From NCBI GenBank assembly GCA_040006915.1, contig JBDTWD010000001.1, positions 34,229-98,228 of the forward strand: a stretch of 64,000 nt of DNA. The letters are read 5' to 3'. Positions 9,567-64,000 of this stretch are shown one piece after another; the first letter of the stretch is position 1, and every line of letters starts with the position of its first letter. The notes beneath the pieces were generated by a model. The model saw only the letters and a list, made by a program, of their open reading frames with translations, was not told the origin of the DNA and made no database searches. A program made the translations under genes and the position numbers. Source of the DNA: Candidatus Woesebacteria bacterium. Lineage in GTDB: Bacteria > Patescibacteriota > Microgenomatia > UBA1400 > UBA12028.

Positions 9567-11308
9567 CTATTCCAAGTGCTCGCTCGCAGCGCATTGAGAA
9601 TGACCGCAACATCGATCACTTCTTGCAGCAATGCGCCCGTAATTGGAGGGATAAAACCAAAAGCAGCGGCAACCATTCCTATAATTGACAGACCAATGCC
9701 AAAGAAAATACTTTGAGTCGCGATCAAAAGAGTGTGATGAGAGATTGCAACAGCATCACTCACAGAATCCAAATTCCCATTTAAAAACACAATATCAGCA
9801 GCTTCAGAAGAAGCTGTTTGTTCTTCATTACTAAACACCATTCCAACGTCGGCAGCTGCGAGGGCTGGTGCATCGTTAATCCCATCACCAATCATTGCTG
9901 TGACAATGTGTTTGCTTTGCAGCTCATGAATTCCTTTTTGTTTATCTTCTGGAGTGCAGTGGGTATGCACAGAAAAAGAGAGTCCTAAGTCTTTTAGGAA
10001 TTGTTGGGTATGCGTATTTTCATCACCGGTATAGAGGGACAGTGCCATCCCTTGTTGCTGCAAAGAACGTAGAGTTGCGACGGCATCAGGTTTGACCACG
10101 TCGGCAAAAGCAAAGGTGGCAATACAGGTTTTTTCTTGCCAAAATCCGACGACCATTTCTTCTTTTTCAAATTTGGCGAAATGATAGTGTTTGCCTGCGT
10201 TTATCCCACTGATGCCTTCACCAATTTTTTCTTGAATGTGGGTAAAGTCTTCGGCGGTGATCTTCTGGTGATTCGCCTCGCGCAAAATGGCTTTGGCGAG
10301 CGGATGTAGAGACTGACTCTCAAGGCCTGCCGCCAGCGCCAAGACTTGGGATTCGGCTAACTTGCGATCAAGAATGGTAATCGTCCTAAGCTCTGGTTTT
10401 CCTAGCGTTAAGGTGCCCGTCTTATCAAACAACATTGCTTTCACACGTGAGAGCACTTCAAGACTTGAAAGACTTTTGATGATAATACGCCTGCTTGCAG
10501 CGGCGTTCACTCCCCCCATCAGAGCAATGGGAGTGGCGAGAATCAACGGGCATGGAGTTGCGAGCACCAAAATCGCCAAGACTCTCTGCACATCTCCTGT
10601 CAGTGCATACGTGACTGCCACGATCGTAAAGGTGATAATGGTAAAGATGACACTATAGCGATCAGCAATTCGAATCAGTGGACTTTTTTCTTGTTGTGCC
10701 AGCTCTACCATGGCAATGATTTTGCGATAGGTTGAATCTTTATCGATTGTTCTCACCCGTATGATGATGGGATTGCCGATATTTATCGTGCCGCTGCGTA
10801 GGAGCATGGTCTTATGCTTGCTTTGGGCGAACACTTCACCAGTTAGTGAGGATTCATCAATGAGGGCTGCATCTGACACGAGTGAGCCATCCAAGGGAAT
10901 GACTTCTCCTTTACGCACCAAAATCTCTTCTCCGATTGTGACTGTAGCAATTTCTTTGATTTGGTTGTGTAGAGCGAGGGTGACGCTATGCGGAATGCGG
11001 CTTGTAAGCTTGGTCAATGCGCTCTTCGCTTTCCTCACCCCATATTTTTCCAAGGTATTGCCTCCAGCCAGCATCAAAACAATCACTGCTGCGACCAGAT
11101 ACTCCCCCGTGAAAATGCCTGTTAAGATGGCGACGATGGCAATGTAATCGAGAGCAAATTTTCTCTGATAGACGGAGCGAGCCGTATCAATAACAAGTTC
11201 GATGCTGCCTATCACAATCACTACGAGAAGGAGAAACGATAAGTGCGTAAGCAAAAAAACAATGATTCCAGTTAGAACAATGACAGGAACAAAAAATAAC
11301 TCAAACAT
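9563..11308 (-). CDS. P1B-type heavy-metal-translocating P-type ATPase in minimal form: about six TM helices and no N-terminal metal-binding domain.
   Basis: TGE (SLTGEV), DKTGTLT, TGD, GDGINDAPAL. The TM4 motif TPCPLILATP is a CPx/TPC-type metal site. There are only two TM helices before the actuator domain and no HMA domain. Confidence 0.85.
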   Translation of the reverse strand: MFELFFVPVIVLTGIIVFLLTHLSFLLLVVIVIGSIELVIDTARSVYQRKFALDYIAIVAILTGIFTGEYLVAAVIVLMLAGGNTLEKYGVRKAKSALTKLTSRIPHSVTLALHNQIKEIATVTIGEEILVRKGEVIPLDGSLVSDAALIDESSLTGEVFAQSKHKTMLLRSGTINIGNPIIIRVRTIDKDSTYRKIIAMVELAQQEKSPLIRIADRYSVIFTIITFTIVAVTYALTGDVQRVLAILVLATPCPLILATPIALMGGVNAAASRRIIIKSLSSLEVLSRVKAMLFDKTGTLTLGKPELRTITILDRKLAESQVLALAAGLESQSLHPLAKAILREANHQKITAEDFTHIQEKIGEGISGINAGKHYHFAKFEKEEMVVGFWQEKTCIATFAFADVVKPDAVATLRSLQQQGMALSLYTGDENTHTQQFLKDLGLSFSVHTHCTPEDKQKGIHELQSKHIVTAMIGDGINDAPALAAADVGMVFSNEEQTASSEAADIVFLNGNLDSVSDAVAISHHTLLIATQSIFFGIGLSIIGMVAAAFGFIPPITGALLQEVIDVAVILNALRASTWNS

Positions 11309-37600: not shown

Positions 37601-39131
37601 TTAAAGCAAAAAGGCGTTCAGTCAAGCTTGCATTTGAGTCAAGTTTTAAATACGGACGACTTGGAACAGGCGGAGCATTTACGTTAATTGACTCGACTCG
37701 ACTAAGATCAATCCACTGTTTTATTTGTTCTTCCCACACATTGAGTGGTGTCTTTCCGGCCACGACAAGAATTGTTCCTGCTGCATTTTTAGTTGTGGCT
37801 TGTTGTTCGATCCTATTAAGAGCTGCTAAAAGCAACATGAGTGTTTTTCCAGTTCCCGGCTCGTCCGCTAAAATTCCGGTTTCCTGCATGAGTTTGGCAA
37901 TTCCTTCGACTTGATGCAGAAGAACATGAGGGAGTAGGTCTTCGTCATCAGAGTTTTTGGGTGAAAAATAATCAATGTGCTGATACGCATCGGCGATTGT
38001 AAAAAAGTATGACCGCATGCGTGGAAGCAGTCGTTCTTCAATTACATGTATAAGCGCGGTTTTTCCCTCGGGAATTCGTTGTGTAATATACTCATGCAAA
38101 AATCGATCCATTGCCTCACCTGCATGTTCACGACTGCCACCTTTTTCAAAATATGTACTCCAAAAGATACTGGCACTTTTATATGTACAACTGATTGCAA
38201 TGGGAAGAAGGATATGCTCTTCCATTGCATCGATAAGATCCAAAACTTCTGTACTTGTTGCACTTTCTTTATACCAGGTAATAAATGTCAGCTGATCTCG
38301 AAAGATTTTTTCCAAAGTAAGATCTTCACTGGATGTCAGGATTTCTGGATTAAATAGTGTGAAGAGATGATCTTGAATATACGAAGGATTTTGTCCCTGC
38401 AATCCTAGCTTTTGGAGGAGAAAGAGAGAGAGCTGCAAGATGACAGCCTTCTGACGATCTCTGGGGACCAGCGGGAGATATTGAAGAAGCGCGTGGACCG
38501 GTTTTGCTTCTTCTTTTTCCAGATACAAAAGGAGTTCTTCTCGGGATCGTTCGTCGTCGATATTGGCAAACTGAGCAAAGTTTTTTGGAAATCGTTTGAG
38601 TAGTCGCGTTTGTACCTCCGATGGTGCACGTTCATACAGAAGTCGATCAACTGCAGTAAATATATCATCAAAACTAATACTTGGATTCTGTTGTCGCTTC
38701 TCATAGTAGACGACAGAAGTAAGTTGTCCATACCAATCTGAATATTTTCCGGTTCGGTTTGCAGTTTTCGTCTGTGGGTCGGCAAATGTAAAAAACTTAT
38801 GAATCTCTTTTGGATTGGGAGTATATTGCAGACTAATATCAGCTGACAATTGCGACCAAAAGGAAGCATCATTCAGTACTTCTCGTGGATCACCTGTGTT
38901 TGTCAGTACCTCAGATTGTAGTTGTGAAGCGAGATGATATGTCCGTAGTGCCTCAATTGCCTGAGAGATTTTGCTTCCATATCGCGTCATGAGATCGCGA
39001 AGCAGGCCATGATCCCGAAACCACTGATAACTGAGCTCCTCGGGGCTTGGAATATGTTCTGAGGATGTCAATCCAAGTGCATCCGAGAAACGTTGTTCAA
39101 ACGACAGAGGCGATGTTTCACTATTTGTCAT
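34695..39131 (-). CDS. SNF2-family (RapA/Rad54-like) helicase ATPase fused to a complete sigma-70 factor (regions 1.2, 2, 3, 4) plus two further region-4-like HTHs. 1478 aa.
   Basis: Helicase motif I [15 protein letters not shown], motif II DEAH box [11 protein letters not shown], motif [17 protein letters not shown]. Sigma region 2 [40 protein letters not shown] and region 3 [16 protein letters not shown]. Region 4 [27 protein letters not shown]. Extra HTHs [28 protein letters not shown] and [20 protein letters not shown]. Confidence 0.8.
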   Translation of the reverse strand: [1478 protein letters not shown]

Positions 39132-42565: not shown

Positions 42566-45475
42566 TTAGAATTTTTTTACGATGACGTCTGTAAATCGAT
42601 TGAGCATTTTTGAGAAATCAGTTATATGAATTTTTCCTTTATACGTTTTTAAGAGAGACTCTTGAATTACTTGCTTGATTATCTTTATGAATTCCTCTCG
42701 TTTTGAAGAGTCTTGCCAGTTTTTATCTAACAGTGAAGATAGTTGCTGAGTCAGACTTTTGGAGATAAAAAGTAACTCATCATCATCAGGGTTCAAACTA
42801 TATTCTTGCAAAAGTCGATACATTCCCATTTCTTGCAGAGTAAGCCCTAGATGTTTCGCTTCTTCGCTCTTGCTTTTCAAATCATTGAGCAAGTCAAAGT
42901 ATCTCTTAATCCGCTCTGAGAGGTCTATTTGTTGCTTTTCAAATTCATCACGGATAGAGAGTAATCGTAGACTAAATTTTTCGAATGACGGATCCGAATC
43001 AATTTGCATTTGAATCTCGTGTTTGATTATTTTCTCTAGTTGCAGTGCTTTTTCCTCTTCATCATCACTGTGAAGCCTATTGAGAACGTAGATATCATTG
43101 ACCGTTAATTCTTTAAAATTGCGGGTAATCCCTTCGTAATCAATTTCTTCCTGAATGATTTTTTTTACCTTCTCCCCATACTCGGCGAGCATTGCGTGAT
43201 TATCATCTTCATCTTGATATGTTTTCTTGAATGCCAAATAAAAACTCGTAATCCATTCAAATTGACGTAGGTATGTGGAGAGGAATGGATCTGGAGACAA
43301 TATTTCGAATAGTAATTTTAATTTTCCGTATTTTTCAACAAAATAGTTCTGTTTTCGCTCATTTTCAGTAAAAATTTTGAGTGCACGACGTAAGTTATCC
43401 ATTGAAGGATCTTCAATATTGATGCCAGTAAACAGTTCCATGATTTCACTTAGAATTTGGATAAACTGTTCTTTAAGTTGATTGATATTGATGAGCGCTG
43501 AGTCGACAATGCTCTCATCAAAATCGAGCGCATCATAGAGGTTTTTTGTAATTCCGTAATAGTCGATAATTTTGCCTGCACCCTTATTTGGATACACGCG
43601 ATTAGTGCGTGCGATTGCTTGGAGTAGATTATGATCTCGTAGTGGCTTATCTAGATACATGACCTGCTCGATCGGTGCATCAAATCCAGTCAGTAACATA
43701 TCACACACCAATAAAAATTGAAGAGGATTCTTTGGATCTTTAAATCGAGTGATGAGTTGTTCTCGCTCTTGCTTGTTTGTGTTGTAGACTTTTAAATCAT
43801 CGGATTCATCATTTGGATCTCCTGGAGAATATATGACTGCAGAGAATTCAGGAGATATCAGTCGATCAAAAATTACTTTATACTTTGCAGTCGCTTCTCG
43901 ATCAAAACAAACAACTTGTGCCTTGAATCCATTCGGAGCGACATACAGTTTAAAGTGTTCGATAATATCCTGTGCGACAGACTCCATACGTTTCGTCAGT
44001 TTTACTAAAGCGGCTTTTTTTCCAAATTTCTTTGAAAGCGCTTCTTTTTGACTATCGGTGAGATCAGTTGTCATCTCGTCAAATTGCTGATCGACTTTCT
44101 CTTCATTAATTGAAAATTTAGAAAGTCTGGCTTCATATGTGACAGGAAGTGTTGCTCCATCATCGATGGCCTCTTGGATTGAATAATAATCTAAGTAACG
44201 TTCGCCATCTTCCCCAAAGTTTCGGTGTGTATTGAGCGTGAGTTTATCGATTGGGGTTCCAGTGAACCCAAATAAAAATGCCTTGTGTAATGATGTTCGT
44301 AAATTGATTGCACTGATTCCTTCGTTATCTCGATGTGCCTCGTCTGAGAGGACGATAATATTCTCATTTGTATTTTCGACATTTGGTCCGAGCTCACTGA
44401 ATTTCTGGATCGTTGAGATAAAGATTCCTCGCTCCGAATTTTGAATCTTCTCTTCTAGATCTTTGCGAGATGTGACCCGTGTCACATTCTCGCCACCACA
44501 ATTCATGAAGGTATCAAATATTTGATCATCCAGGTCGATTCGATCAACAAGGATAAAAACTTTGGGATTGTGAAGCAAAGTATCAAATCGAAGTTTCCAT
44601 GCAGTGAAAAACATAGTCAAACTTTTCCCCGATCCTTGCGTGTGCCAAACGAGTCCGCGCTTTTTCTCTCCCTGTTTCACTCGCTCGATAATTTTATTTG
44701 TTGCTCGGAATTGCTGATACCTGGCGATCTTTTTTATTCGACCATCAGTCGTTTTTTCAAACACTATAAAATTAGAGATAATATCCAGTAGAGTCTCTTT
44801 GGTAAGGAGGGCTGCTATCGACATTTCTACATTTCCACCATGAAGAGTTTCTAGATCCTCGTCTTTCCATTGCAAGAAATGCTGGAGTGGTGAGTACGTC
44901 GCACCATACACTGTTTGAATACCGTCTGTTGCTATACTGAAGCAGTTTGGCCAAAAGAGCCGATGCGCATTCTTCTCGTAGCGTTTGAGCTGTCCGACGG
45001 CCTTGGAGTAGTCCACGAGAGTACTTGCAGTCGGACTTTTTGCTTCGATATCGATAAGAGGGATTCCATTGACGAAGATCATGATATCCGGACGGATATT
45101 TTCTAAATTACCTTCAAAGTAAAACTGATTCGTGACTACAAATTGATTGTTCTCTGGATTCCGCAAATCAATAACTTTGTAGTCTCTCATCTTGCCACTC
45201 ACGGGATCTTTTAGATTAACGCCAGATCTATAGAGTCTCAGGAAGTCTTCGTTTGAGTCGATCTTCTTCACCTCTCGGAGTACACTTTGTGCCTCATCTT
45301 CAGAGATTTCATTGATTCGTTGTATTGCTACTAGGAGATGGGAAGAGATCAGAAATTCATTCTCAAACTCTCGAAGCTTGGAAAAAATTTCAGGCCTGAT
45401 GTACTCATATCCAAGTGTGGCTGATATGAATTTAATGATGTGATTCTCGACGGTGTATTGTTCGTTAAATTTCAT
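42566..45475 (-). CDS. hsdR: Type I restriction enzyme R subunit (HsdR).
   Basis: N-terminal nuclease region, helicase motif I TQGSGKSLTM and DEAH box LSDEAHR. The 969-aa size is typical of HsdR. Confidence 0.9.
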   Translation of the reverse strand: MKFNEQYTVENHIIKFISATLGYEYIRPEIFSKLREFENEFLISSHLLVAIQRINEISEDEAQSVLREVKKIDSNEDFLRLYRSGVNLKDPVSGKMRDYKVIDLRNPENNQFVVTNQFYFEGNLENIRPDIMIFVNGIPLIDIEAKSPTASTLVDYSKAVGQLKRYEKNAHRLFWPNCFSIATDGIQTVYGATYSPLQHFLQWKDEDLETLHGGNVEMSIAALLTKETLLDIISNFIVFEKTTDGRIKKIARYQQFRATNKIIERVKQGEKKRGLVWHTQGSGKSLTMFFTAWKLRFDTLLHNPKVFILVDRIDLDDQIFDTFMNCGGENVTRVTSRKDLEEKIQNSERGIFISTIQKFSELGPNVENTNENIIVLSDEAHRDNEGISAINLRTSLHKAFLFGFTGTPIDKLTLNTHRNFGEDGERYLDYYSIQEAIDDGATLPVTYEARLSKFSINEEKVDQQFDEMTTDLTDSQKEALSKKFGKKAALVKLTKRMESVAQDIIEHFKLYVAPNGFKAQVVCFDREATAKYKVIFDRLISPEFSAVIYSPGDPNDESDDLKVYNTNKQEREQLITRFKDPKNPLQFLLVCDMLLTGFDAPIEQVMYLDKPLRDHNLLQAIARTNRVYPNKGAGKIIDYYGITKNLYDALDFDESIVDSALININQLKEQFIQILSEIMELFTGINIEDPSMDNLRRALKIFTENERKQNYFVEKYGKLKLLFEILSPDPFLSTYLRQFEWITSFYLAFKKTYQDEDDNHAMLAEYGEKVKKIIQEEIDYEGITRNFKELTVNDIYVLNRLHSDDEEEKALQLEKIIKHEIQMQIDSDPSFEKFSLRLLSIRDEFEKQQIDLSERIKRYFDLLNDLKSKSEEAKHLGLTLQEMGMYRLLQEYSLNPDDDELLFISKSLTQQLSSLLDKNWQDSSKREEFIKIIKQVIQESLLKTYKGKIHITDFSKMLNRFTDVIVKKF

Positions 45476-45477
45476 AA

Positions 45478-46557
45478 TTATGCAAAGAATCTTTCCATCC
45501 CTCCCTCGATCATAAAATTAGTATATCCCTGGTTTGGAAAATACATATCTGTGATTTTTATTTGATCCACAACTCTAAATCTTTTAACATAATCCTGCGC
45601 TGATAATCCACCATTCGATACGATAGTAAGCTTTACATTGTCATGTAGATGCTCCTTCAACAAAGATAGTAAGTACTCGTCTTGCGCTCTCCAACCTATG
45701 ACGAGAATTCGATCAGTTTCCTTTATTTGTTCAATCAAACTATCGATATGTGATTTAGGACAAATAAAATTCCCTTTTGTTCCGATAGGTATTGCGATTG
45801 CTGGTAAATAGTACAGCCATTGTCCTTCACGAAAACCATTTTCTTTGTGCTCACGATAGGCTTCGTTTAAGCTAAAAGAATCAATTGCCCTGTAGTTGAA
45901 TCTTTTGATTACAATGGGAAAAACTTCGCGCTCTCTGTAGTCATCACTTCGAATCTCTGTATCAGACATGAAATATTCATAGACATCTCTTTTTAGTGAG
46001 TCGATTTTTGGAATATACCTCCAATTATGGGCGCCATGAATCTTAATAACTTTTATGGGTCCTGAAATATAGTCATCAATGTTGTTTCCTAAATTTATAT
46101 TGCTAATATTTTTCTCGAATAGAGTGTCATAGTTGAAATTCACGACACATGCATTTCCACCGCGGTTGTTTATTTCATTAATCAGATGAAGATGATTGTT
46201 TGTATGTCTGAAATGATAAAAAGATACTTTATTTAGAAGTTCAGCTAAATAAAACCTTAAAGCCATTACTTGAGTTCTCGTGTTGTCTGGATAGTCTTGT
46301 TGAATCTGTGATAAATATTTTTCAAAATCGAAACTATTCTTTTGGTTTTTTACCAGATTATTGATTGTGGCAGCTAGTGGTTTGACATGTTCATAATTCC
46401 CTATTATTCTGCCAAATTTAGCCACATCAAATAGTTGATTTGTAAGAGGAGGTTGCCAGTCTTTCAACTCAAAAATGTCGTTATGACCTTCGTAGTCGGC
46501 GAGATTTTGAAAGTCATGTGAAGCGCCAGCACCAAGAATGATGAGTGGATGTGCCAT
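45478..46557 (-). CDS. SIR2-like (SIR2_2 family) NAD-binding/NADase domain protein, embedded between hsdS and hsdR.
   Basis: The N-terminal IILGAGAS glycine motif, VVNFNYDTLFE (SIR2_2 NYD motif) and IKIHGAHNW (catalytic His) match defence-associated SIR2 domains. Start and stop are coupled with hsdS and hsdR (1 to 2 nt). Confidence 0.7.
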   Translation of the reverse strand: MAHPLIILGAGASHDFQNLADYEGHNDIFELKDWQPPLTNQLFDVAKFGRIIGNYEHVKPLAATINNLVKNQKNSFDFEKYLSQIQQDYPDNTRTQVMALRFYLAELLNKVSFYHFRHTNNHLHLINEINNRGGNACVVNFNYDTLFEKNISNINLGNNIDDYISGPIKVIKIHGAHNWRYIPKIDSLKRDVYEYFMSDTEIRSDDYREREVFPIVIKRFNYRAIDSFSLNEAYREHKENGFREGQWLYYLPAIAIPIGTKGNFICPKSHIDSLIEQIKETDRILVIGWRAQDEYLLSLLKEHLHDNVKLTIVSNGGLSAQDYVKRFRVVDQIKITDMYFPNQGYTNFMIEGGMERFFA

Positions 46558-46558
46558 A

Positions 46559-47734
46559 TTAATTTATTTGGATTTTTTGACTAAAAATATCAGACATTAG
46601 TTTTTTTTTCAGTTGATTTAAATAGTTCTTTGCATCAATTTCAGTTTTAATTTTTTCTGATAAATAGTGGATACTGGTGACTATTTTTTTTTGTGTCCCG
46701 AGACTTTTTGGAATACGTATTTCAAAAGTGCGAATTTTTTCCATGGATAGACTCGATTGAGCTGTAGTACTAATGTTTTTTTTTATTTCATAATCAATCA
46801 GTGGGCTCATAAAGTATGTAAACAGATATTCTGGTAAAACTTTGTTTAAGCAGGATATTTTACAAACATTTGGACCCAAGTGAAACTTATTATTCTCTTC
46901 AATCAGTGCAACCGGACCGATAGTGCCAACGTATGAAAAAATCAAATCACCTTTAATCAATTGAGACCTTGGGAGTGCGTGAGAAACATTCAGAGGTATA
47001 GTTTTTGTATCGTTCAAATCTAGCGAGCCTTTCTTTATGTTTTTACCTCTCAATACTGTTATCTCTCCTTTGTCTCTATAGCTATTAAAATATTTTGTGA
47101 ATTCGTACCCAGCTAGTTTTGTTATATTAGCGACGTCTCCCAATCTTACTAACTCCCATTGCTCCGTGAGCTCTACTCCCTTCTCTCTTGTGCCATTCAA
47201 ATTTTCCGGTAATAGCACCTTCATTATTCCTTTTTTTAAGATCTCTGTTTTTTGAGTGATTTGATCGTTTTTTTCAATTTCTTCATCAACAGTTGATAAT
47301 ATTTTAGAAATTTTCTTTTGAATGATCTTAGGAGGTAGCGTGGCGACAATTTCATATACATCTTCTCTATTTAGGCCTGGAATTCCAGTTCCCCTATTCA
47401 TTTTTTCTAACCCAAGTGTTTGAAGTAAGTAATAAGTCCATCGAAGATCTACGCCTTCATGATCGATAACATAATAGGTTGTATCTATTGGCCAAAAAGG
47501 TGAATCAGAAAATTCAATTTTCCCTATGCTTCCTTTTCTACCAACAACTAAACCTTTGGAGTTGATAAGCGCTATGTCATTATGTCCAACGATGCCGTTT
47601 GACCCATAGACAGGGATGTTTCCTTTCTTCCTTTTGTGTGTAGGAAGATTCTTCCCATACTCTAGTTTCAAAAATTCCCCAGTCTTAACTTTTTTCCAGG
47701 GTAGACTTGTATTTGGCATATTATTTCTTCTCAT
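46559..47734 (-). CDS. hsdS: Type I restriction-modification specificity subunit (HsdS).
   Basis: Two-TRD architecture with conserved central and C-terminal helical repeats, ~390 aa, located inside the hsd operon. Confidence 0.75.
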   Translation of the reverse strand: MRRNNMPNTSLPWKKVKTGEFLKLEYGKNLPTHKRKKGNIPVYGSNGIVGHNDIALINSKGLVVGRKGSIGKIEFSDSPFWPIDTTYYVIDHEGVDLRWTYYLLQTLGLEKMNRGTGIPGLNREDVYEIVATLPPKIIQKKISKILSTVDEEIEKNDQITQKTEILKKGIMKVLLPENLNGTREKGVELTEQWELVRLGDVANITKLAGYEFTKYFNSYRDKGEITVLRGKNIKKGSLDLNDTKTIPLNVSHALPRSQLIKGDLIFSYVGTIGPVALIEENNKFHLGPNVCKISCLNKVLPEYLFTYFMSPLIDYEIKKNISTTAQSSLSMEKIRTFEIRIPKSLGTQKKIVTSIHYLSEKIKTEIDAKNYLNQLKKKLMSDIFSQKIQIN

Positions 47735-47905
47735 TTACGACCATATTGAGCTAGTGCTCGCAATGGTTTTTGGTTGATTTATTAGATTTCCTTTAATTTA
47801 GCTTCGCACTCTAGACTCAATTGTTCGATCATATCGGTGACTTCACCGATATGATATTTTGCCTATCTGTCGGTCCTTTTACTCGAGACGGAGAGTTGTG
47901 CAGGG

Positions 47906-47933
47906 TTGACAATAGGCAGTTTCAAGCTATAAT
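47906..47933 (+). promoter_or_regulatory. Perfect-consensus sigma-70 promoter (TTGACA, 16-nt spacer, TATAAT) on the plus strand, antisense to the hsd operon.
   Basis: TTGACA at 47906-47911, TATAAT at 47928-47933. Confidence 0.5.
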
Positions 47934-47940
47934 TAAATCT

Positions 47941-47993
47941 GATCGGAAACGATCAAATTCGTTGGCTTAAGGGCTCCTCGCGGAGTCCTTTTT
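47941..47993 (+). ncRNA. Putative ~50-nt small RNA, antisense to the NYN-hsdS intergenic mRNA. It has a GNRA hairpin (GATCG-GAAA-CGATC) and a terminator hairpin (GGGCTCC-tcgc-GGAGTCC) followed by TTTTT.
   Basis: Bounded by the consensus promoter (TSS ~47941) and an intrinsic terminator at 47971-47993. It ends 6 nt before the NYN gene stop codon on the opposite strand. Confidence 0.3.
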
Positions 47994-47998
47994 GCTAT

Positions 47999-48751
47999 CT
48001 ATAGCTGTTTGCTAATATCTGGCTGAATCTCCTTTGCGTTGCAGATGAAATTCCGAATTTTTTGAATATCAAAGATCTGCGCTTTTGTTGCTCCCAGCTC
48101 AATTGAGATCCGACGGGCCGTGGCAAAAATGACAACTTTCTTTTTATCTTTTAGTAACTGGGAGACGGGATCGGCGAAATCACTATCTCCTGACCAAAGG
48201 ATAAAGTTATCTGTACCTCCAGCATCATAGTCATGGAGCATATCTCTACCGAGCTCGACATCAAAATTACATTTTCGATGCTCAATGTATGTGATACCTG
48301 AAAGGTTTAAATCCTTAAGCTTATCGTTAAGAAATTCTATGGTTTCAAGGGTGAAACGTCGAAGAAGCGGTTTTTTGATGAAGTTTGCCAAGATAGCGGG
48401 TGAATTATTTGGTATACCAGAAACATCTATGGGTAGACGCATGATCTTTACAGCTTTTGTTGTAACTGCATAGTTCATTTTAGTCAAATCGTTTATGAAA
48501 TGAATAGAATCAGGGTTAGTTTCTAATGTTCCCTGATACAGTCGAACAACTGAAATTGCTGAGAATGAGTCACAGAATTGTTTTAACCTTTTCGGGTCAA
48601 TGTGCCAACTGAGTTTTTCAGACCAATGCAACATATTCGCCCAGTCTAAATATATGTTCGTTGGTTTATCAAAAATTTTCTCAAGTTCTTTTATACGATC
48701 TGGATAAATTTGTGCTAGCTTTTTAAGTCGTTCTGTTTTTGCTTTAAACAT
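47999..48751 (-). CDS. NYN-domain (LabA/PIN-like) predicted ribonuclease, embedded between hsdM and hsdS.
   Basis: IYLDWANM near the N-terminus and FILWSGDSDFADP match NYN/PF01936 conserved Asp motifs. The start overlaps the hsdM stop by 8 nt. Confidence 0.65.
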   Translation of the reverse strand: MFKAKTERLKKLAQIYPDRIKELEKIFDKPTNIYLDWANMLHWSEKLSWHIDPKRLKQFCDSFSAISVVRLYQGTLETNPDSIHFINDLTKMNYAVTTKAVKIMRLPIDVSGIPNNSPAILANFIKKPLLRRFTLETIEFLNDKLKDLNLSGITYIEHRKCNFDVELGRDMLHDYDAGGTDNFILWSGDSDFADPVSQLLKDKKKVVIFATARRISIELGATKAQIFDIQKIRNFICNAKEIQPDISKQL

Positions 48752-50447
48752 ATCCCAACTCCTTTATAAAGCTAGCTACTTTGGCATGAATTTGTTCGCG
48801 TTGTGTTTCCAGCTCTTGGAGCTCTTTCCACACTGCAGATACATCAATTTCCTCTACCTCATCGGTCGAATCAATGTAGCGTTTTATATTGAGGTTATAC
48901 TCATTCTCGGCGATTTCTTTCACCTCGATGACACGTGCGTATTTCTCTACATCTTGATAGGCGTCATACGCACTGACAATCTTCTCGATATCTTGATTGC
49001 GGAGTGTGTTCTGATTTTTCCCTTCCGCAAAATCGCGCTCCGCATCGATCATGAGAATTTTGTTTTTCTTGTGATCAGGTTTATTTTTATTTAATATCCA
49101 GACAGCCACAGGGATTCCGGTTCCAAAGAAGAGCTTCGGTGGGAGAGATACGATTGTATCGATGAGGTCATTTCTTATGATTTGTTCGCGAATCCGTCCT
49201 TCACTGCCGCCACGGAATAGCACTCCATGAGGAAGGATTATTCCAGCCCGACCATTCATATTCATGGATTTGATGATGTGGAGCACAAAGGCAAAGTCGG
49301 CATTCTTTTGTGGAGGAAGCTCATATTCACTTGTCCTGCCATACTTATCATTGCGAAAGATCTCAAATTCCCAATCTTTAATCGAGTAAGGGGGATTTGC
49401 AACACAAATATCCCATGTTTGTAAGTTTCCTGAGTCGGTCAAGAACTGAGGATTTGCTAATGTGTCACCACGACGAATATCAGCACTATCGAGGCCATGC
49501 AAAAACATATTTATCTTTGCGATGGCAAAAGTACTGATATTAATTTCTTGTCCATAGAGATAGAGAGTTCGGGCGATCTGTTCTCCTGCTTTTTTTTTCA
49601 GATAAGCATATGCTTCGAGCAGAAACCCACCTGATCCCACCGTCGGATCATAGATGTGATCCTTCTGATGAGGCTTAAGGATTCCAATGATTGCTCTTTC
49701 TACCTCTCGAGGCGAATAAAATTCGCCGCCTTTTTTTCCTGCATCTGCTGCAAATTGACTAATGAGATACTCATATGCATCTCCAAGCAAATCTGAGCTG
49801 ATATATGCACTCCCGAAGTTGTACTGCGAGAAATGATTGATCAGTCGCTGTAGTGTTTCATTTGGAAAACGATCTTTATTTGCAAAGTCGAGATCGGCAA
49901 ATATTTTATCGAGTTTGGGACTATTGACGTTTGTCAGCTTATCGAAGATTTCATTGAGTTTCCCCCCAATATCTGAGGGAGTGTTTTCTAGTGTCGTCCA
50001 CTTACAGTCGGCAGGGACCTGGAATCTGTGATTATAGTCAGCACGAGCAAGGTCTTTATCATGATACTCGTTGAGTACTACATCATATTCTTCATCCCAG
50101 ACATCGCTAATTCGTTTGTAAAAAAGAAGACCGAAGATATATTTTTTGTAGTCACTGCTATCAATTTTCCCTCGCAGAATGTCTGCACTTTTCCATAGCA
50201 TCTGTTTAAGCTCGGACAAGGTCATGGTGTGCGCACTGATCTGTGATAACAATCCACCAACGTCCGAATCAATCATTTTGGCGATTTCCTTCTGACGATA
50301 ACGACGATCCTGTCTGGGTCCAACTCGGAGTGGTACCAGTGTTCCATTTCTCTCCCAGTTACGTAGGGTGTCAGCATGAATACCAAAAAGTTTGGCTACT
50401 TGTCCGATACTTAGAAGTGCTTTTTCTCTAGTTGCTTGTTCTGACAT
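48744..50447 (-). CDS. hsdM: Type I restriction-modification N6-adenine DNA methyltransferase subunit (HsdM), with an N-terminal HTH-like extension.
   Basis: NPPY motif VANPPYSIKDW. AdoMet motif I DPTVGSGGFL. HsdM N-terminal domain. Confidence 0.9.
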   Translation of the reverse strand: MSEQATREKALLSIGQVAKLFGIHADTLRNWERNGTLVPLRVGPRQDRRYRQKEIAKMIDSDVGGLLSQISAHTMTLSELKQMLWKSADILRGKIDSSDYKKYIFGLLFYKRISDVWDEEYDVVLNEYHDKDLARADYNHRFQVPADCKWTTLENTPSDIGGKLNEIFDKLTNVNSPKLDKIFADLDFANKDRFPNETLQRLINHFSQYNFGSAYISSDLLGDAYEYLISQFAADAGKKGGEFYSPREVERAIIGILKPHQKDHIYDPTVGSGGFLLEAYAYLKKKAGEQIARTLYLYGQEINISTFAIAKINMFLHGLDSADIRRGDTLANPQFLTDSGNLQTWDICVANPPYSIKDWEFEIFRNDKYGRTSEYELPPQKNADFAFVLHIIKSMNMNGRAGIILPHGVLFRGGSEGRIREQIIRNDLIDTIVSLPPKLFFGTGIPVAVWILNKNKPDHKKNKILMIDAERDFAEGKNQNTLRNQDIEKIVSAYDAYQDVEKYARVIEVKEIAENEYNLNIKRYIDSTDEVEEIDVSAVWKELQELETQREQIHAKVASFIKELGYV

Positions 50448-59253: not shown

Positions 59254-59715
59254 TTAAATAAGCAAAACGTCTATGTTCATTCTTTTTAATATTTCTATTC
59301 CTTTTCCTATATGTGAAGGTTTCTTAGAAATCACGCGTTTCATTCTAGCTTGATGAATAGCTATTGCACATTCTTTGCAAGGCGGGATGGAGACATACAT
59401 ACTCGCACCTGTAAGATCAATATCATGAGTGGAAGCATTTCTAATTGCTATAAACTCAGCGTGCAAACACTTACATTCTCGTCGTTTTTCTCCCGAAGCC
59501 AATATACCTAAGAATCTCTGTTTACATCTTACACAGCCACCTTCACCACATTTCAAATCAGAGAAGGTATCATTATGACCAGATGACAATATTTCTTCGT
59601 TTAGACAAATAACTGCACCGACTTTTTTACTTAAACAAGTGCTTTTTTTGGATTCATCTTCAGCAATTTTCAAAAATTTACTGTCGCTTGTAAAAACCCG
59701 TTGTTTAATTGACAC
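59254..59715 (-). CDS. dCMP (deoxycytidylate) deaminase, zinc-dependent CDA family.
   Basis: Zinc motifs CLHAEFIAI (H/CxE) and PCKECA (PCxxC). It sits directly downstream of the hydroxymethylase gene with no gap. Confidence 0.8.
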   Translation of the reverse strand: MSIKQRVFTSDSKFLKIAEDESKKSTCLSKKVGAVICLNEEILSSGHNDTFSDLKCGEGGCVRCKQRFLGILASGEKRRECKCLHAEFIAIRNASTHDIDLTGASMYVSIPPCKECAIAIHQARMKRVISKKPSHIGKGIEILKRMNIDVLLI

Positions 59716-60630
59716 TTACGATTCTTTCTTTCCAATTAAGGTGTTTTGGCAAAAATTACAGAAATTACTCTTTAATGGGAATAGATCTTTATTAGTATTA
59801 TTTCTAATAATGCTCTCATTCAATTGTAGCTGATCAATCTCGCTTAAGTCATCTATTGGTGGCATAGTGATAATCTTATTTTCATTGGGACTTCTTATTA
59901 TTGACTCGACCATTTCAAAATTCCTTTTATAGATATGACTACTTGTAGAAAAATGGTGATACATGCCAAGTTGCAATTGTGGATAATGTGCCCGCAATTC
60001 GATAAGCATCTTTTCTTGAAAGAGAGTGAAAGCAAAAACGTCATTTGCAAATCCAAGAATCAAATCATTGCTTCGCATATTCACAGAAAGATAGAGCCTT
60101 TCGTTCCGGATAAAAAATTGTAAAAATGCGGTACAAAGAAAGTCTTTAGTAGGTTTTAGCATATCTCGTGGAGAGATGAGCATAATGACTGCTCTTCGCG
60201 ATTCTTTATCTATAACGAGTTCTTTTATCACGAAATCCCACTGATTGACCGAATGTTCTGTATTATTTCCAAAAATTCTATATCCATATGCTGAGTTAAC
60301 GGTTTTCCCATCGTCGCTCACTTTTTTCCAAAATTTAGAATAAAACGATATTTCTTCCAAGCTGTTAGATCCTCGCTCATACCACAGCCATTCGGCGATA
60401 CCGTACCTAAGGGAGAAACCACGATATTTATTTGTGATAATTCTTTGACTTGGATCAGATATTGTTACGTGTGTGCAAATAATCTCTCTAGTATCTTCAC
60501 CTCTTGGCGAGACAATAAAATCTGGATTCTCGTAGGCATCCTTCAATATCTCGAGGAATGCCTCGTTCGTAGTCGTTGCAAAGTAAGATCTGTTTTTATT
60601 CATAACCAAGTAAAGCATTATACCTCTCAA
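59716..60630 (-). CDS. Thymidylate-synthase-family pyrimidine hydroxymethylase, closest to T4 gp42 dCMP hydroxymethylase.
   Basis: ThyA-family core: ESRRAVIMLISPRDM (the SRR...S.W motif), catalytic Cys in DFLCTAFLQFF, and NMRSNDLILGFAND. Asp sits at the position of ThyA Asn177, 8 residues after the RSxD Asp, as in dCMP hydroxymethylases. Confidence 0.7.
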   Translation of the reverse strand: MRGIMLYLVMNKNRSYFATTTNEAFLEILKDAYENPDFIVSPRGEDTREIICTHVTISDPSQRIITNKYRGFSLRYGIAEWLWYERGSNSLEEISFYSKFWKKVSDDGKTVNSAYGYRIFGNNTEHSVNQWDFVIKELVIDKESRRAVIMLISPRDMLKPTKDFLCTAFLQFFIRNERLYLSVNMRSNDLILGFANDVFAFTLFQEKMLIELRAHYPQLQLGMYHHFSTSSHIYKRNFEMVESIIRSPNENKIITMPPIDDLSEIDQLQLNESIIRNNTNKDLFPLKSNFCNFCQNTLIGKKES

Positions 60631-61738
60631 TAGTGGTATTTAAACTTTGAGGTAAGTTTGGCAACCTGTTATCTTCATCATACCTGTTTTGTACAATTAG
60701 CTGAGGAGCCTCTATACCAAGCCAATCAAATATTTTTTGTAATGCGTCTGTAGGCTGTCTCAATAAATCCTCAAAGGGTATGTGAACCATTTGTACATGA
60801 TTGCTCTGTTCCATAATTGCTGAAATATGTCTCCCCCAAAATATTGCCGGATCATCTGTAGAATCACTCTCTGTGAAGTATTTAAAACCATTTGTCGCTA
60901 TTGATTGTGAGGCCGCATATCCATTGCGGTGTATATGAATAAAATATGCACTATTGTTGAAAATGTGTTGAAGTTGTGGAATTCGAAAACTATTAAAAGG
61001 AGATTTAGATAAAAAGAAAGGTGATTCAAAAGCTTGAGCATGCTCTGAGGCAGCCATTACAAGTGATTCAGGATTCTTGATAACAGGCTCACTCAGCAGA
61101 TACTGATGCGTTCGAAGCTGTGAGTAAGAGGTTATATATCTGTTAAAGATGTGTTCTGATTCATCGGGAATTACCGTATCGGTTAACAACCTTAGTTTTT
61201 TTGAATCTTGGGTTAAAATTTCTGATCCAGAACTTTGAAAATGTTTCCGCCCATCTAAATGTGACAAATTATACGATGACCATACATGATGAGAGAAATT
61301 AGTAAAATACGAAAAGCAGCGTTGAAATGATAACAAATTGAACAAGTGGGTGGTTCCAGACCGAGGACTTCCTACAATAAAAATATTTTTCTCAGGGGCT
61401 GTTGGTGGGCTAATTCTGCCTTTGTGTTCAAGTCTAGCGTTCATTTGTCCCTGCAAGTCAATTCTTTCTCGTTCAGCAATTAAAGATATATCAAGATAGC
61501 TGCTTCCATGTTGAGCCATTAAATCAAGATATTTGACTATTTCCGCGTGTGTTTCTTTAGCAACTCCTCCTGACAATGACCTTCCTTCTAATTCTTCGAT
61601 TAAGACATGTTCTTCAAGATTTTCACTAAAGCGATAAATTCTTCTTTTCGCTAGTGCAATATCCGCCCTGAGTTGACGAATATTCTCGGGGACAAGCGCT
61701 TGTTCAGATGTGGGAGTAAAACGAATAATTTCACTCAT
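60596..61738 (-). CDS. Sulfotransferase-family protein (P-loop-like PAPS-binding fold) with a ~110-aa N-terminal extension.
   Basis: 5'-PSB-like motif IFIVGSPRSGTTHL. YFIHIHRNGYAASQS resembles the sulfotransferase RDPRD...S motif. Confidence 0.55.
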   Translation of the reverse strand: MSEIIRFTPTSEQALVPENIRQLRADIALAKRRIYRFSENLEEHVLIEELEGRSLSGGVAKETHAEIVKYLDLMAQHGSSYLDISLIAERERIDLQGQMNARLEHKGRISPPTAPEKNIFIVGSPRSGTTHLFNLLSFQRCFSYFTNFSHHVWSSYNLSHLDGRKHFQSSGSEILTQDSKKLRLLTDTVIPDESEHIFNRYITSYSQLRTHQYLLSEPVIKNPESLVMAASEHAQAFESPFFLSKSPFNSFRIPQLQHIFNNSAYFIHIHRNGYAASQSIATNGFKYFTESDSTDDPAIFWGRHISAIMEQSNHVQMVHIPFEDLLRQPTDALQKIFDWLGIEAPQLIVQNRYDEDNRLPNLPQSLNTTIERYNALLGYE

Positions 61739-61741
61739 ATA

Positions 61742-62524
61742 TCAGATGATTTTACTCTCTTGTAATAATTTACTGGTTAAACGCAAAAGATAATTTGCAT
61801 CAGTCTCCGAAGTGTTCGGATTGAGTCGTATGGCACTTATGCAAGAGTTCGCTACAACAATTGGTAAAACAGCTTCATATTCGCTTAGCTGGCCTAGTAA
61901 TGTTGCGTTACGAACACCTGAGAGGAACTTCTTCAATAACGGATAGATCTCTATATTTGGATCGGTGTATTGAAACTTGATCAACTGAGCAAAATCAGCC
62001 AGAATGAATGAGGGAACAACATAGTCGAAATCTATCATTGATACATTATCCTCATGAAAAACCCAGTTTTCTGGTTTAGCGTCTTTGAATAATGCGGGGA
62101 AAAATAACGATTCGAGTGCCCTTAAATTTTTTTCATACTGAGGCATACATACATCGGCTCCAGTTTTTCTGCTAAAGAACAAAACATTCTCTCGTACTTT
62201 GTTAATGTAGTCACCACGTGTGTTCCCCTTTGTCGAGTCCAATGGAAATAATTTCTGAAACGAAATGAGTTGGTTAATACAGACATTTAACTCACCGTTC
62301 GATAAATATCGTTTGACTAAACCTGAGATGCCTTTCATCCTTATACTATTTTGCTCACCATTCACTTCAAGAATCGATGGCGTACGTATCCCTTGTGACG
62401 AACAAGCATTGAGATAATATGCTTCACACTGAAATCTATCTTTGCTCGCATATTTTTTGATAATAACTAAATACTCTTTGTCCTTTTGTACAGTCACAGT
62501 ATTTACATTGCTTTGAACTGTCAT
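61742..62524 (-). CDS. APH/choline-kinase-like (protein-kinase fold) phosphotransferase.
   Basis: Beta-3 Lys region EYLVIIKKY, catalytic loop DAKPENWVF (HGD-x-x-x-x-N-like) and metal-binding IDFD. Confidence 0.55.
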   Translation of the reverse strand: MTVQSNVNTVTVQKDKEYLVIIKKYASKDRFQCEAYYLNACSSQGIRTPSILEVNGEQNSIRMKGISGLVKRYLSNGELNVCINQLISFQKLFPLDSTKGNTRGDYINKVRENVLFFSRKTGADVCMPQYEKNLRALESLFFPALFKDAKPENWVFHEDNVSMIDFDYVVPSFILADFAQLIKFQYTDPNIEIYPLLKKFLSGVRNATLLGQLSEYEAVLPIVVANSCISAIRLNPNTSETDANYLLRLTSKLLQESKII

Positions 62525-62526
62525 AT

Positions 62527-63570
62527 TTATCTCAATTCCTGGAATGCATGTAAAATTGAATCAATCTGTCTCTCCTGAGAAAAAATTTGAGCAATGGAAA
62601 ACAACTCAAGCAACAAGTCCGTAATCTTTTTACCAGAACGAGTAAGAATCCAATCTATTCCTTCAAGAACATCTTTGTCGTCTGCAACAATTAGCTCTGC
62701 AGGGAACATTTGGGTAACGTCTCCATATTCTTTTGGTACGAACGGAATACAAAGACCCCAAAGTGATTCAAATAATCGTTGTGTCATCTGTCCGCTTTTA
62801 TAGTATCTTTCAGGAGCAATTAGAACTGTCGTTAGAGATTGCTCGTATAACCCGTGTACTCTTTCGAAACCAATTCTTCCATGAAAATCAGCATTAAGGA
62901 ATTGATTTGGATCCCACTTTCCATAAATTTGTGCCGGTGGAGTCAATAATTTCGATGGCCTGTCATAGTATTTATTGAAACTTTCATCTCTTTCATATTG
63001 ATTACCAATATATATTAACTTAATCGATCTGGTCATTGTCTGATAATCGTTTATTCGTTCTACCGCCTGACCTGTTCTACGTGCATCCATTGGGAAAAGC
63101 AGCTGCCTTCTCCCTTCCCGTGGGTTTAAAGAAGGTTCGAAAACAGTTACCCTGTTTTGAGATAAAATTTCGGCATCAACAGGTAATTTTTGATCCTTAT
63201 CCCAAATGAGAATCGGTACATCTTGCGATACATAATACTCTAATATCTCTGTTTGACGATCAAGATCTGGCATATAAAGCTTGTCTGTTTTTTCTATTCC
63301 GACGTTCCTGCCAGGGATCGGCCACCTATATTCTAAAAATACGAAGTCAAGATCGGGAAACTTGTCACTAAATGACAAGCTCGATTTACTAAAATCTTCG
63401 CCAGCCTCCTCCAGATCTCGATTTTTCTGCAACATTCTTACTGATGCTCCTTGTGCAATTAATCCGTCAATGAGTGTGAATCTATGACTACGACCACCAT
63501 CAGGCGTATTCTCTATTCCGTTCCCTAAAAATCCCCAACAACTATATCCAACTTCAATTTTTGATGACAT
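62527..63570 (-). CDS. Glycosyltransferase resembling phage T4 DNA beta-glucosyltransferase (BGT-like, GT-B fold).
   Basis: 347 aa (T4 BGT is 351 aa). KLIYIGNQYERDESFNKYY resembles BGT's LDVIYGGSFRSGQRESKM, and RLFESLWG resembles RVWETMAS. The gene sits in an operon with a hydroxymethylase. Confidence 0.45.
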   Translation of the reverse strand: MSSKIEVGYSCWGFLGNGIENTPDGGRSHRFTLIDGLIAQGASVRMLQKNRDLEEAGEDFSKSSLSFSDKFPDLDFVFLEYRWPIPGRNVGIEKTDKLYMPDLDRQTEILEYYVSQDVPILIWDKDQKLPVDAEILSQNRVTVFEPSLNPREGRRQLLFPMDARRTGQAVERINDYQTMTRSIKLIYIGNQYERDESFNKYYDRPSKLLTPPAQIYGKWDPNQFLNADFHGRIGFERVHGLYEQSLTTVLIAPERYYKSGQMTQRLFESLWGLCIPFVPKEYGDVTQMFPAELIVADDKDVLEGIDWILTRSGKKITDLLLELFSIAQIFSQERQIDSILHAFQELR

Positions 63571-64000
63571 ATAGGACTTCTATATATTTATCTATAAACA
63601 TTTTTTTTCTGGAAATTTCTTTCAGCCAAGCTAATTTATACTCTTCATTTTTGTCAGATGACAAGACACCTGACAAGTTGTATCTTGGCGTGGATAAAAC
63701 ATAATCTAAAACATTTTTAGGAGATTCAACAAAAACTTGAGTTTCCATCAAATATGAATCTATAGAGTATTCTCCTTCCGGAAAACTTTTTCTTAAGATC
63801 GTTTCACCATTCTCATAACAAAAATGCTCTTCATCACGTGTTGAAGAAATGCTTTTCCCAGTCGTTTGAAAATTAAATAGTCTGTACGAAATTTCTTTAA
63901 AAATCCTTTCCATCTCTGGGAAAGTGGCCTTTGATTTCGTTGTGATGAAAATGACATGCTTTTTATTTAAATTCTGTTTTAATCCTTTAAAAAAAAGCTT
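63554..64000 (-). CDS. Hypothetical protein, C-terminal part. The ORF stays open to the window end.
   Basis: The reading frame is open from 63913 to 64000 with no stop. It overlaps the start of the glycosyltransferase gene by 17 nt. Confidence 0.35.
   Translation of the reverse strand, partial: KLFFKGLKQNLNKKHVIFITTKSKATFPEMERIFKEISYRLFNFQTTGKSISSTRDEEHFCYENGETILRKSFPEGEYSIDSYLMETQVFVESPKNVLDYVLSTPRYNLSGVLSSDKNEEYKLAWLKEISRKKMFIDKYIEVLYVIKN

Follow-up and report, generated by a model that had tools for sequence, protein, structure and literature searches.

Bulky hypermodifications of pyrimidines made by way of thymidylate-synthase homologues have, to our knowledge, so far been described only in viruses. 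The T4 pathway of 5-hydroxymethylcytosine (5hmC) glucosylation uses a dCMP hydroxymethylase (gp42), a dNMP kinase (gp1), a dCTPase (gp56), the deaminase cd and alpha- and beta-glucosyltransferases (AGT and BGT). A related set of genes occupies positions 59254-64000 of a 64,000-nt stretch of DNA from Candidatus Woesebacteria (the window, meaning the whole stretch that was analysed). The core of predicted dCMP hydroxymethylase, putative nucleotide kinase and GT-B fold glycosyltransferase is the same, and in cells it forms a conserved chromosomal cluster together with four tailoring enzymes that were not found together in any phage contig. By analogy with the phage systems, the operon may be a cellular version of pre-replicative 5hmC hypermodification in which the sugar is tailored, a reading for which confidence and doubt are evenly balanced.

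Two further phage pathways bear on this locus. On cytosine-modified contigs from phage fractions, MetaGPA revealed the co-occurrence of a carbamoyltransferase, a ThyA homologue with Asp177, a dCMP deaminase and MazG (Yang et al., eLife 2021, PMC8670742). One such carbamoyltransferase has been shown experimentally to turn 5hmC in DNA, RNA and 5hmdCTP into 5-carbamoyloxymethylcytosine (PMC8670742). The ThyA homologue of the RB69 and DLP3 clusters is accompanied by a thymidylate-kinase-like kinase and GT-B transferases, as well as by a phosphatase and an arabinose-1-kinase of the APH fold (Lee et al., NAR 2026, PMC13326640).

The sequence at 59254-64000 contains six co-directional open reading frames (ORFs) on the minus strand (Table 1). 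As neighbouring frames either share 8 or 17 nt or lie only 0-3 nt apart, they fit a single translationally coupled operon. A Logan contig obtained from an exact-protein match of the glycosyltransferase (L001, 5,033 bp) is 100% identical to window positions 61782-64000 and reaches 2,814 bp past the end of the window. It carries the full 273-aa methyltransferase gene (2440-3261) and, upstream of it, genes for a carbamoyltransferase and then a P-loop protein, with only 49 bp of sequence preceding the latter. No other contig extends the window, an exact look-up of the sulfotransferase having given no record. The operon thus described has at least eight genes, in the order putative P-loop kinase, carbamoyltransferase, methyltransferase, GT-B glycosyltransferase, APH-fold kinase, sulfotransferase, predicted dCMP hydroxymethylase and dCMP deaminase. 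An earlier sequence-only reading of this DNA had proposed a five-gene minus-strand operon; all five genes are where it placed them and its family assignments hold, but the operon extends further. The ORF program lists 63554-63913 as a complete ORF of 119 aa; its frame stays open through the last base of the window (64000), and ORFs at a window edge can be misreported as complete.

The ThyA homologue is predicted to be a dCMP 5-hydroxymethylase because its active-site residues match published diagnostic positions. It probably begins with the ATG at 60603, whose overlap with the stop codon of the sulfotransferase gene reads ATGAATAA; this gives a protein of 295 aa. The top matches among PDB sequences are the CMP hydroxymethylase MilA (8e-39) and T4 dCMP hydroxymethylase (1e-18); the thymidylate synthases of E. 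coli and L. casei reach only about 1e-7, and the best chain so named, from B. subtilis, 1.6e-13. NCBIfam thymidylate-synthase models score 26-63 bits against cut-offs of 108-427, and tblastn of E. coli ThyA against the window gave no match. Aligned with E. coli ThyA, and in E. coli numbering, the protein has E58, R126, R127, D143, C146, R166, S167, D169, D177, H207 and Y209, so that catalytic Cys146 and Glu58 and the phosphate-binding residues Arg126', Arg127' and Arg166 are all kept. The motif GFANDVF puts Asp at position 177, in line with the equivalent Asp of T4 dCMP hydroxymethylase and Asp186 of MilA; KDFLC puts Asp143 three residues ahead of the catalytic Cys, and RSND keeps Asp169. Asp in place of Asn177 selects cytosine, Asp or Glu in place of Leu143 accompanies a hydroxymethyl product, and Asn in place of Asp169 is the mark of the flavin-dependent 5-hydroxy-dCMP synthases of RB69 (gp48) and DLP3 (gp80) (PMC13326640). 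Ser167 together with Arg126' goes with 2'-deoxy substrates, whereas MilA and BcmA, which prefer CMP, have Ala and Lys (PMC5175136).

These positions dispose of several other functions. An ordinary thymidylate synthase, which the sequence-only reading had named as part of what would overturn it, is ruled out by Asp177 and Asp143 and by scores far under the NCBIfam cut-offs. A 5-hydroxy-dCMP synthase is ruled out by the retained Asp169, and a MilA-type ribo-CMP hydroxymethylase by Ser167 and Arg126 in place of Ala and Lys. Since position 177 is Asp, the route would run via 5hmC, and the 5-hydroxymethyluracil-type route of other phages, which the sequence-only reading had also cited as a model, is ruled out. 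The D143/C146/S167/D169/D177/R126 signature is common to the ThyA partners of the glycosyltransferase in about 78 cellular loci and in 13 of 14 viral ones; most of the partners have Ser and Arg like the window enzyme, but Gly stands at 167 in 20 actinobacterial ones. One viral contig stands apart from all other loci (L005, IMGVR_UViG_2818991273_000001): its ThyA homologue (4934-6184) has the MilA-type Lys126/Ala167 ribo-CMP signature, and its glycosyltransferase (about 10007-11026), which has the cell-type motif, is the closest 'viral' one (34% identity). This could be a ribonucleotide variant, or else an actinobacterial region wrongly classed as viral.

The glycosyltransferase has a confident GT-B fold with two Rossmann domains, for which T4 BGT is the second-best structural match and AGT is also among the top matches. 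It has no Pfam or PHROG match and no sequence-level membership in the T4 BGT or AGT families (structural identity 14%), and the GT4 enzymes WlaC, PimA and BshA score equally well. Its isoelectric point of 5.05, beside a family median of about 6.5, does not hint at DNA binding. The family has 219 detectable members; scans located it in the genomes of 322 species and, among 2.9 million IMG/VR contigs, in 16 viral ones. A tblastn search of 50,697 genomes of isolated phages found none; its viral relatives are known from metagenomes only. The motifs ExRWxIxGRN, WD.D, YxG..YxRD and TxR..E (N- and C-domain) are conserved between cellular and viral members, and most residues invariant in the cellular enzymes are also invariant in the viral ones. 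Natural fusions of the glycosyltransferase to the APH-fold kinase occur in CPR-like (Candidate Phyla Radiation) sequences (P0021, 599 aa; P0026, 592 aa). In an actinobacterial protein (P0103, 478 aa) the first ~125 residues of the carbamoyltransferase are joined to the glycosyltransferase, possibly as a deletion derivative.

In viruses, this glycosyltransferase is found among genes for DNA replication and nucleotide metabolism. A ThyA homologue lies within the locus in 14 of the 16 viral contigs. Three of them (L008, L015 and L020) share the order dUTPase_2/MazG pyrophosphatase, thymidylate-kinase-like P-loop protein, glycosyltransferase, hydroxymethylase, deaminase (not in every contig) and DNA polymerase III alpha; the P-loop protein matches the YorR structure at 1.4e-13. 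In L006, L007 and L011 the enzyme has the cell-type N-terminal motif DSPDGGRxxR; its gene has that of a dUTPase_2 protein on one side and that of a DinG-like helicase on the other, and primase, ThyA and polymerase III alpha genes are near. From modules that combine pyrophosphatase, kinase-like protein, hydroxymethylase and polymerase III alpha, it appears that in phages the family belongs to the classical pathway in which 5hmC-containing DNA is made and then glycosylated. L008 alone also encodes a UDP-galactopyranose mutase (8374-9474; GLF 1.6e-52) just upstream of the kinase, glycosyltransferase and hydroxymethylase genes, which suggests galactofuranosylated 5hmC DNA in that uncultured phage. 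The phage-type logic of hydroxymethylation followed by decoration, as put forward in the sequence-only reading, is thus upheld by the dCMP-hydroxymethylase signature, the T4-BGT-like GT-B fold and the T4-type modules around the viral glycosyltransferases.

A profile of the carbamoyltransferase found 73 viral loci, none of them with the glycosyltransferase, methyltransferase or kinase. A single viral locus of this kind (L170, 9677-14505) combines a divergent carbamoyltransferase with an Asp177-type ThyA homologue and a deaminase, without a glycosyltransferase, which matches the arrangement described by MetaGPA for 5-carbamoyloxymethylcytosine.

In cells, the glycosyltransferase and ThyA homologue are coupled across at least six phyla. 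Counts for genomes rest on the 80 best-scoring loci listed among the 322 carrier species; the ORFs of these loci were searched, within 8 kb of the glycosyltransferase, with profiles of the eight operon proteins. The ThyA homologue was present in 76 of the 80 and the carbamoyltransferase in 78, a grouping far beyond chance. The full set of ThyA homologue, carbamoyltransferase, glycosyltransferase, methyltransferase and APH kinase recurs in CPR bacteria, in other phyla and in many Actinomycetota. Most of the 80 loci are from Actinomycetota and have the order ThyA, carbamoyltransferase, glycosyltransferase, then P-loop protein, methyltransferase and APH kinase. The CPR pattern is (P-loop), carbamoyltransferase, methyltransferase, glycosyltransferase, kinase, (sulfotransferase), ThyA, (deaminase or P-loop), and is seen in Saccharibacteria (L021), Paceibacterota (L002, L003), Komeilibacteria (L060, L101) and an 819-kb CPR contig (L102), the last with the window's gene order minus the P-loop gene. 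Rickettsiales and Bdellovibrionales (L024, L036) have variants of the CPR order, and carriers also include Amoebophilaceae and Anaerolineae. Among the cultivable carriers are Kitasatospora phosalacinea NRRL B-16228, Salinispora mooreana DSM 45549, Streptomyces tanashiensis JCM 4086, S. fimbriatus JCM 5080 and an Agrobacterium tumefaciens strain (GCA_009498535.1).

Genes for sugar metabolism accompany many of these clusters. A census of 123 ORFs flanking 16 actinobacterial-type loci counted 20 APH proteins, 14 NDP-sugar epimerases/dehydratases and 12 S-adenosylmethionine (SAM) methyltransferases, as well as members of the His_Phos_1 (6), HAD (5) and NUDIX (2) families. Other loci add a UDP-glucose dehydrogenase (L103, L178) or a cytidylyltransferase (L004). 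The epimerases/dehydratases, UDP-glucose dehydrogenases and cytidylyltransferase argue that a real nucleotide-sugar is probably made for the glycosyltransferase.

The deaminase has the zinc motifs HAE and PCxxC (PCKEC), and its GTG start directly follows the stop codon of the ThyA homologue. A deaminase gene adjoins the cluster in the CPR loci L021, L102, L101 and L002 (orientation varies) and in 6 of the 16 viral loci. The sulfotransferase carries the 3'-phosphoadenosine-5'-phosphosulfate (PAPS) motifs GSPRSGTT (5'-phosphosulfate binding, 5'-PSB) and RxxxxxxS and has an N-terminal extension of ~115 aa. Its orthologues are placed likewise in the operons of L002/L003 and L102, and they are also present in three Actinomycetota-type loci from metagenome-assembled genomes (L072, L075, L092); its sole PDB sequence match is weak (4gox, 0.0046, deposited as 'Polyketide synthase'). 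The ERF motif of the P-loop protein aligns with the DRF motif of the viral thymidylate-kinase-like proteins (hhalign probability 83.5%), and the protein has no significant Pfam or PDB match. PDB sequence searches gave nothing useful for the P-loop protein, the APH-fold kinase or the methyltransferase. As a single-sequence search with the APH-fold kinase matched the query only, a profile built from locus-derived homologues was used. No PADLOC or NCBIfam family was above threshold for the operon proteins; the PADLOC defence-system models gave generic matches only (the deaminase domain to a dCTPase model and, weakly, the methyltransferase to mad2).

Table 1. Genes of the operon and of the type I restriction-modification system in the window; positions are those of the window unless contig L001 is named.
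Feature	Position	Strand	Size	Matches and remarks
dCMP/cytidylate deaminase	59254..59715	-	153 aa	PF00383 2e-20; phrog_174 'dCMP deaminase' 2.6e-31
ThyA-family enzyme, predicted dCMP 5-hydroxymethylase	59716..60630	-	304 aa (maximal ORF)	PF00303 1.8e-22
PAPS-type sulfotransferase	60596..61738	-	380 aa	PF13469 3e-22; PF00685 1.2e-6
APH/choline-kinase-fold small-molecule kinase	61742..62524	-	260 aa	weak APH match 6e-4
GT-B fold glycosyltransferase	62527..63570	-	347 aa	no Pfam or PHROG match; assigned by fold
class I SAM methyltransferase, 3' part	63554..64000	-	last ~148 codons of 273-aa gene	PF13489 6e-11
carbamoyltransferase	L001 715-2436, outside window		573 aa	TobZ/NodU-type; Carbam_trans_N 1.1e-38; Carbam_trans_C 1.1e-53; TobZ 8e-59
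P-loop protein	L001 50-718, outside window		222 aa	Walker A; moderate resemblance to viral thymidylate-kinase-like proteins
hsdR	42566-45475	-		
hsdS	46559-47734	-		
hsdM	48744-50447	-		N-terminal MerR-type helix-turn-helix

The operon resembles T4 5hmC glucosylation in its Asp177/Asp143 ThyA-family enzyme (1e-18 to T4 dCMP hydroxymethylase), dCMP deaminase and putative P-loop kinase, and the viral relatives of its glycosyltransferase lie in modules of exactly T4-type composition. It differs in being on a cellular (CPR) chromosome, in having no dCTPase, in a glycosyltransferase outside the T4 BGT/AGT sequence families and in the addition of carbamoyl-, methyl-, phospho- and sulfo-transferases. 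With the 5hmC carbamoyltransferase pathway (PMC8670742) it shares three clustered genes, for a Carbam_trans_N/C enzyme, a ThyA homologue with Asp177 and a dCMP deaminase. However, the window enzyme is only 24% identical to the validated carbamoyltransferase (over 388 residues, 4e-13) and has no MazG/PRA-PH partner, and the host is cellular where the other was a phage fraction. The window operon also adds a glycosyltransferase, methyltransferase, kinase and sulfotransferase, and the carbamoyl group may go on the sugar.

The clusters for arabinosyl-5-hydroxycytosine in RB69 and DLP3 and for hexosyl-5-hydroxycytosine in RL38J1 (PMC13326640) share a cluster grammar with the operon; the P-loop partners of the viral glycosyltransferases match the same YorR structure, and the actinobacterial clusters add the same kinds of sugar-donor enzymes as RB69 and DLP3. 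In contrast, the ThyA homologues of RB69 and DLP3 carry D169N and make 5-hydroxy-dCMP, whereas the window enzyme keeps Asp169, the hydroxymethyl route. These phage clusters have no carbamoyl, methyl or sulfo tailoring, and the window operon has no nucleotidyltransferase. The mildiomycin and bacimethrin pathways (MilA/BcmA) are cellular, mostly actinobacterial, with methyltransferase and kinase partners, and among PDB sequences it is MilA that matches the ThyA homologue best. They differ in the Ala176 and Lys133 of MilA/BcmA (ribo-CMP), against Ser and Arg (dCMP) in the window family, and in the MilB/BcmB N-glycosidase, which is lacking from the window operon; moreover, the glycosyltransferase family of the operon is shared with phage replication modules. 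In the DNA kinase systems of 5-hydroxymethyldeoxyuridine (5-hmdU) phages (ViI, M6, PaMx11, SP10 and PhiW-14), a kinase likewise acts on a hydroxymethyl pyrimidine before group transfer, although a leaving-group role here is speculative. The base in the window pathway would be cytosine, not uracil (Asp177), its kinase has an APH fold, and the operon has no aGPT-Pplase or pyridoxal-phosphate (PLP) enzymes.

No description of this gene combination, of a sulfotransferase in a base-modification cluster or of such clusters in cellular genomes was found in a literature search of incomplete coverage, the nearest being PMC8670742; nor was a description of a sulfated DNA base found in the literature searched. 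By comparison with the described systems, the cluster would represent a known kind of pathway in a new form, borne by cells and more elaborate, with DNA as its putative acceptor.

The pathway might proceed as follows. The residues of its active site strongly suggest that the ThyA homologue would convert dCMP to 5-hydroxymethyl-dCMP. By analogy with T4 gp1 and the RB69/DLP3 kinases, the P-loop kinase and the host NDP kinase could then raise this to the triphosphate, and the replicative polymerase would put some 5hmC in the chromosome. Replacement of cytosine would be partial because no dCTPase is present. From its fold and the phage context of its family, the GT-B enzyme would glycosylate the 5-hydroxymethyl group. 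The sugar, or residual 5hmC, may then be O-carbamoylated, methylated, phosphorylated and, in this lineage, sulfated, as the enzyme families and their conserved co-occurrence suggest. The APH-fold kinase may add phosphate to the attached sugar or make a sugar-1-phosphate donor, the role proposed for the APH-like arabinose kinase of RB69, and the deaminase would balance the dCMP/dUMP pool as in T4. More speculatively, in a chemistry analogous to that of 5-hmdU DNA kinase (PMC11472151), the hydroxymethyl carbon could carry sulfate or phosphate as its leaving group. The likely benefit would be to block nucleases or to mark self DNA, a role that fits the low-GC, defence-rich neighbourhood of the operon. 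A wider proposal is put forward only tentatively: CPR bacteria, hundreds of Actinomycetota species, Rickettsiales, Bdellovibrionales, Amoebophilaceae and Anaerolineae may install glycosyl-5hmC in their own chromosomes, its sugar bearing carbamoyl, methyl and phosphate groups and, in Woesebacteria and Paceibacterota, sulfate as well.

Several observations weigh against modification of DNA. Neither the eight-gene operon nor the flank in the window has a dCTPase or MazG, and cellular clusters lack it in general, only the viral relatives having one. No contig in the IMG/VR scans had the carbamoyltransferase, methyltransferase, glycosyltransferase and kinase together, and profile scans of viral contigs with the kinase and the sulfotransferase found no relatives of either subfamily. 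The link of the P-loop protein to nucleotide kinases is moderate only (the hhalign probability of 83.5% given above), and the actinobacterial P-loop proteins downstream of the glycosyltransferase are not detectably homologous to that of CPR bacteria (hhalign probability 5%). All of the tailoring enzymes resemble small-molecule enzymes, and the family of the glycosyltransferase is commonest in Actinomycetota, which are typical natural-product producers. The carbamoyltransferase is far closer to the small-molecule enzymes TobZ (8e-59), NovN and GdmN than it is to the carbamoyltransferase validated on 5hmC; for this reason its acceptor may be the sugar rather than 5hmC itself. Finally, no report of a cellular organism with pyrimidine hypermodification by the thymidylate-synthase route was found in the literature searched.

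The product may instead be free, a 5-hydroxymethyl-2'-deoxycytidine nucleotide or nucleoside that is glycosylated, carbamoylated, methylated, phosphorylated and sulfated and serves as an antimetabolite, toxin or signal, like mildiomycin, bacimethrin and the agrocins. This is the main rival, a serious possibility if a rather doubtful one. The kinases and phosphatases would then be steps of the pathway or of self-protection. It would account for tailoring families best known from small-molecule pathways (the relatives of TobZ, NovN and GdmN, the APH/choline-kinase fold and PAPS-type sulfotransferases), for kinase and sulfotransferase subfamilies without phage relatives and for the lack of a dCTPase in cellular clusters. 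It also suits the 80 best-scoring loci of the 322 species, mostly actinobacterial clusters of 12-15 genes with HAD, NUDIX and His_Phos_1 phosphatases, and the precedent of the ThyA homologues MilA and BcmA, which serve antibiotic pathways (PMC5175136). A cluster in Agrobacterium tumefaciens (L177, QSNR01000020.1, 5455-17223) also speaks for it: two ORFs of unknown function, carbamoyltransferase, glycosyltransferase, methyltransferase, two further such ORFs and ThyA run co-directionally into an ABC-2 exporter, whose first gene overlaps that for ThyA. On its flanks are genes of the DeoR, SBP_bac_5, oligopeptide-type ABC and GDPD families that resemble agrocinopine uptake loci (the acc operon), and the cluster may make an agrocin-like nucleotide antibiotic. 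Against a free product, the window operon itself has no transporter, nor is there one among the 25 commonest families of ORFs flanking the 16 actinobacterial-type loci. It has no MilB/BcmB-type N-glycosidase either, and its family of ThyA homologues carries the deoxy signature Ser167/Arg126 rather than the ribo signature Ala/Lys. Furthermore, the recurrently co-located dCMP deaminase would compete for substrate, and the glycosyltransferase family, including the subfamily with the cell-type motif, sits in phage DNA-replication modules. CPR genomes, at under 1 Mb, rarely afford secondary metabolism.

That the operon belongs to a phage or other mobile element in the chromosome (a prophage remnant or satellite) and modifies the DNA of that element, or packaged DNA, instead of the host chromosome is improbable. 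Its core of glycosyltransferase, hydroxymethylase, kinase and deaminase is common to phage replication modules, and GC content is 0.36-0.37 across ~52-64 kb against 0.43-0.47 in much of the window. In L002 an FtsK/SpoIIIE gene and a Y1 transposase gene lie within 6 kb of the cluster, and defence islands and mobile elements often co-locate. But the 10 small flanking ORFs that were tested (52.7-59 kb) show no phage or mobile-element hallmark in PHROG or Pfam; they have no PHROG match, and their Pfam matches are few and weak except for a thioredoxin-like ORF. The 64-kb window has no integrase and no tRNA gene, the clusters of L101 and L102 have housekeeping neighbours (RF-1, ComEC, NDK and pseudouridine synthase), and the full tailoring set is absent from the IMG/VR contigs. 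The region of ~52-64 kb looks like an acquired island without recognisable mobility genes, and the prophage remnant offered in the sequence-only reading found no prophage genes in the downstream flank to bear it out. The same reading had allowed that glycosyltransferase, kinase and sulfotransferase decorate a cell-envelope glycan and merely neighbour an ordinary thymidylate synthase and dCMP deaminase. Weak matches to Glyco_trans_1_2 (CgeB-type) in some members of the glycosyltransferase family and a LytR-CpsA-Psr gene elsewhere in the window point that way. The ThyA homologue, however, is not a thymidylate synthase (Asp177, Asp143, NCBIfam cut-offs widely missed), the genes overlap in one operon, and the operon has no flippase, polymerase, lipid-carrier or signal-peptide component. 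Above all, glycosyltransferase and ThyA are adjacent in 76 of the 80 genomes, in at least six phyla and in 14 of the 16 viral contigs, and fusions of glycosyltransferase and kinase exist. The envelope pathway is effectively refuted by this co-occurrence across phyla and phages and was rejected; its probability is very small indeed.

The neighbourhood of the operon includes defence genes. A type I restriction-modification system with an NYN gene lies at 42566-50447 on the minus strand, ~9 kb from the operon; it had been described as standing beside the operon together with abortive-infection-like genes, of which none could be verified. Two extra genes break up the system, one a 359-aa ORF without a Pfam match (weak PADLOC match to SIR2, 0.0017) and the other the NYN-domain ORF at 47999-48751. 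The cluster in Komeilibacteria (L101, 464-6207) lies directly downstream of GIY-YIG, N6_N4 methyltransferase, DEAD/ResIII helicase and SduA_C (Shedu) genes and is a second case of the cluster in a defence neighbourhood. The rest of the window encodes ordinary cellular proteins, including Pol X, a P-type ATPase, LytR-CpsA-Psr and ABC proteins. On the minus strand at 34695-39131, a 1478-aa ORF joins a SNF2/ResIII/Helicase_C ATPase to sigma-70 regions 2, 3 and 4, an unusual fusion of helicase and sigma factor.

The glycosyltransferase family, its fusion with the kinase and the cluster as a whole are all directly testable, some of the carriers being cultivable type strains. Should the product be a free nucleotide, the clusters would represent a new class of deoxycytidine-based natural product and a widespread, uncharacterised biosynthetic cluster. 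If the product is in DNA, hypermodified DNA would extend to cellular life, with sulfated, carbamoylated or methylated glycosyl-5hmC as new DNA chemistries and possible enzymatic tools for 5hmC labelling. Such modification would affect the sequencing, restriction and exchange of these genomes, and it might explain how DNA-scavenging CPR bacteria discriminate between self and foreign DNA.

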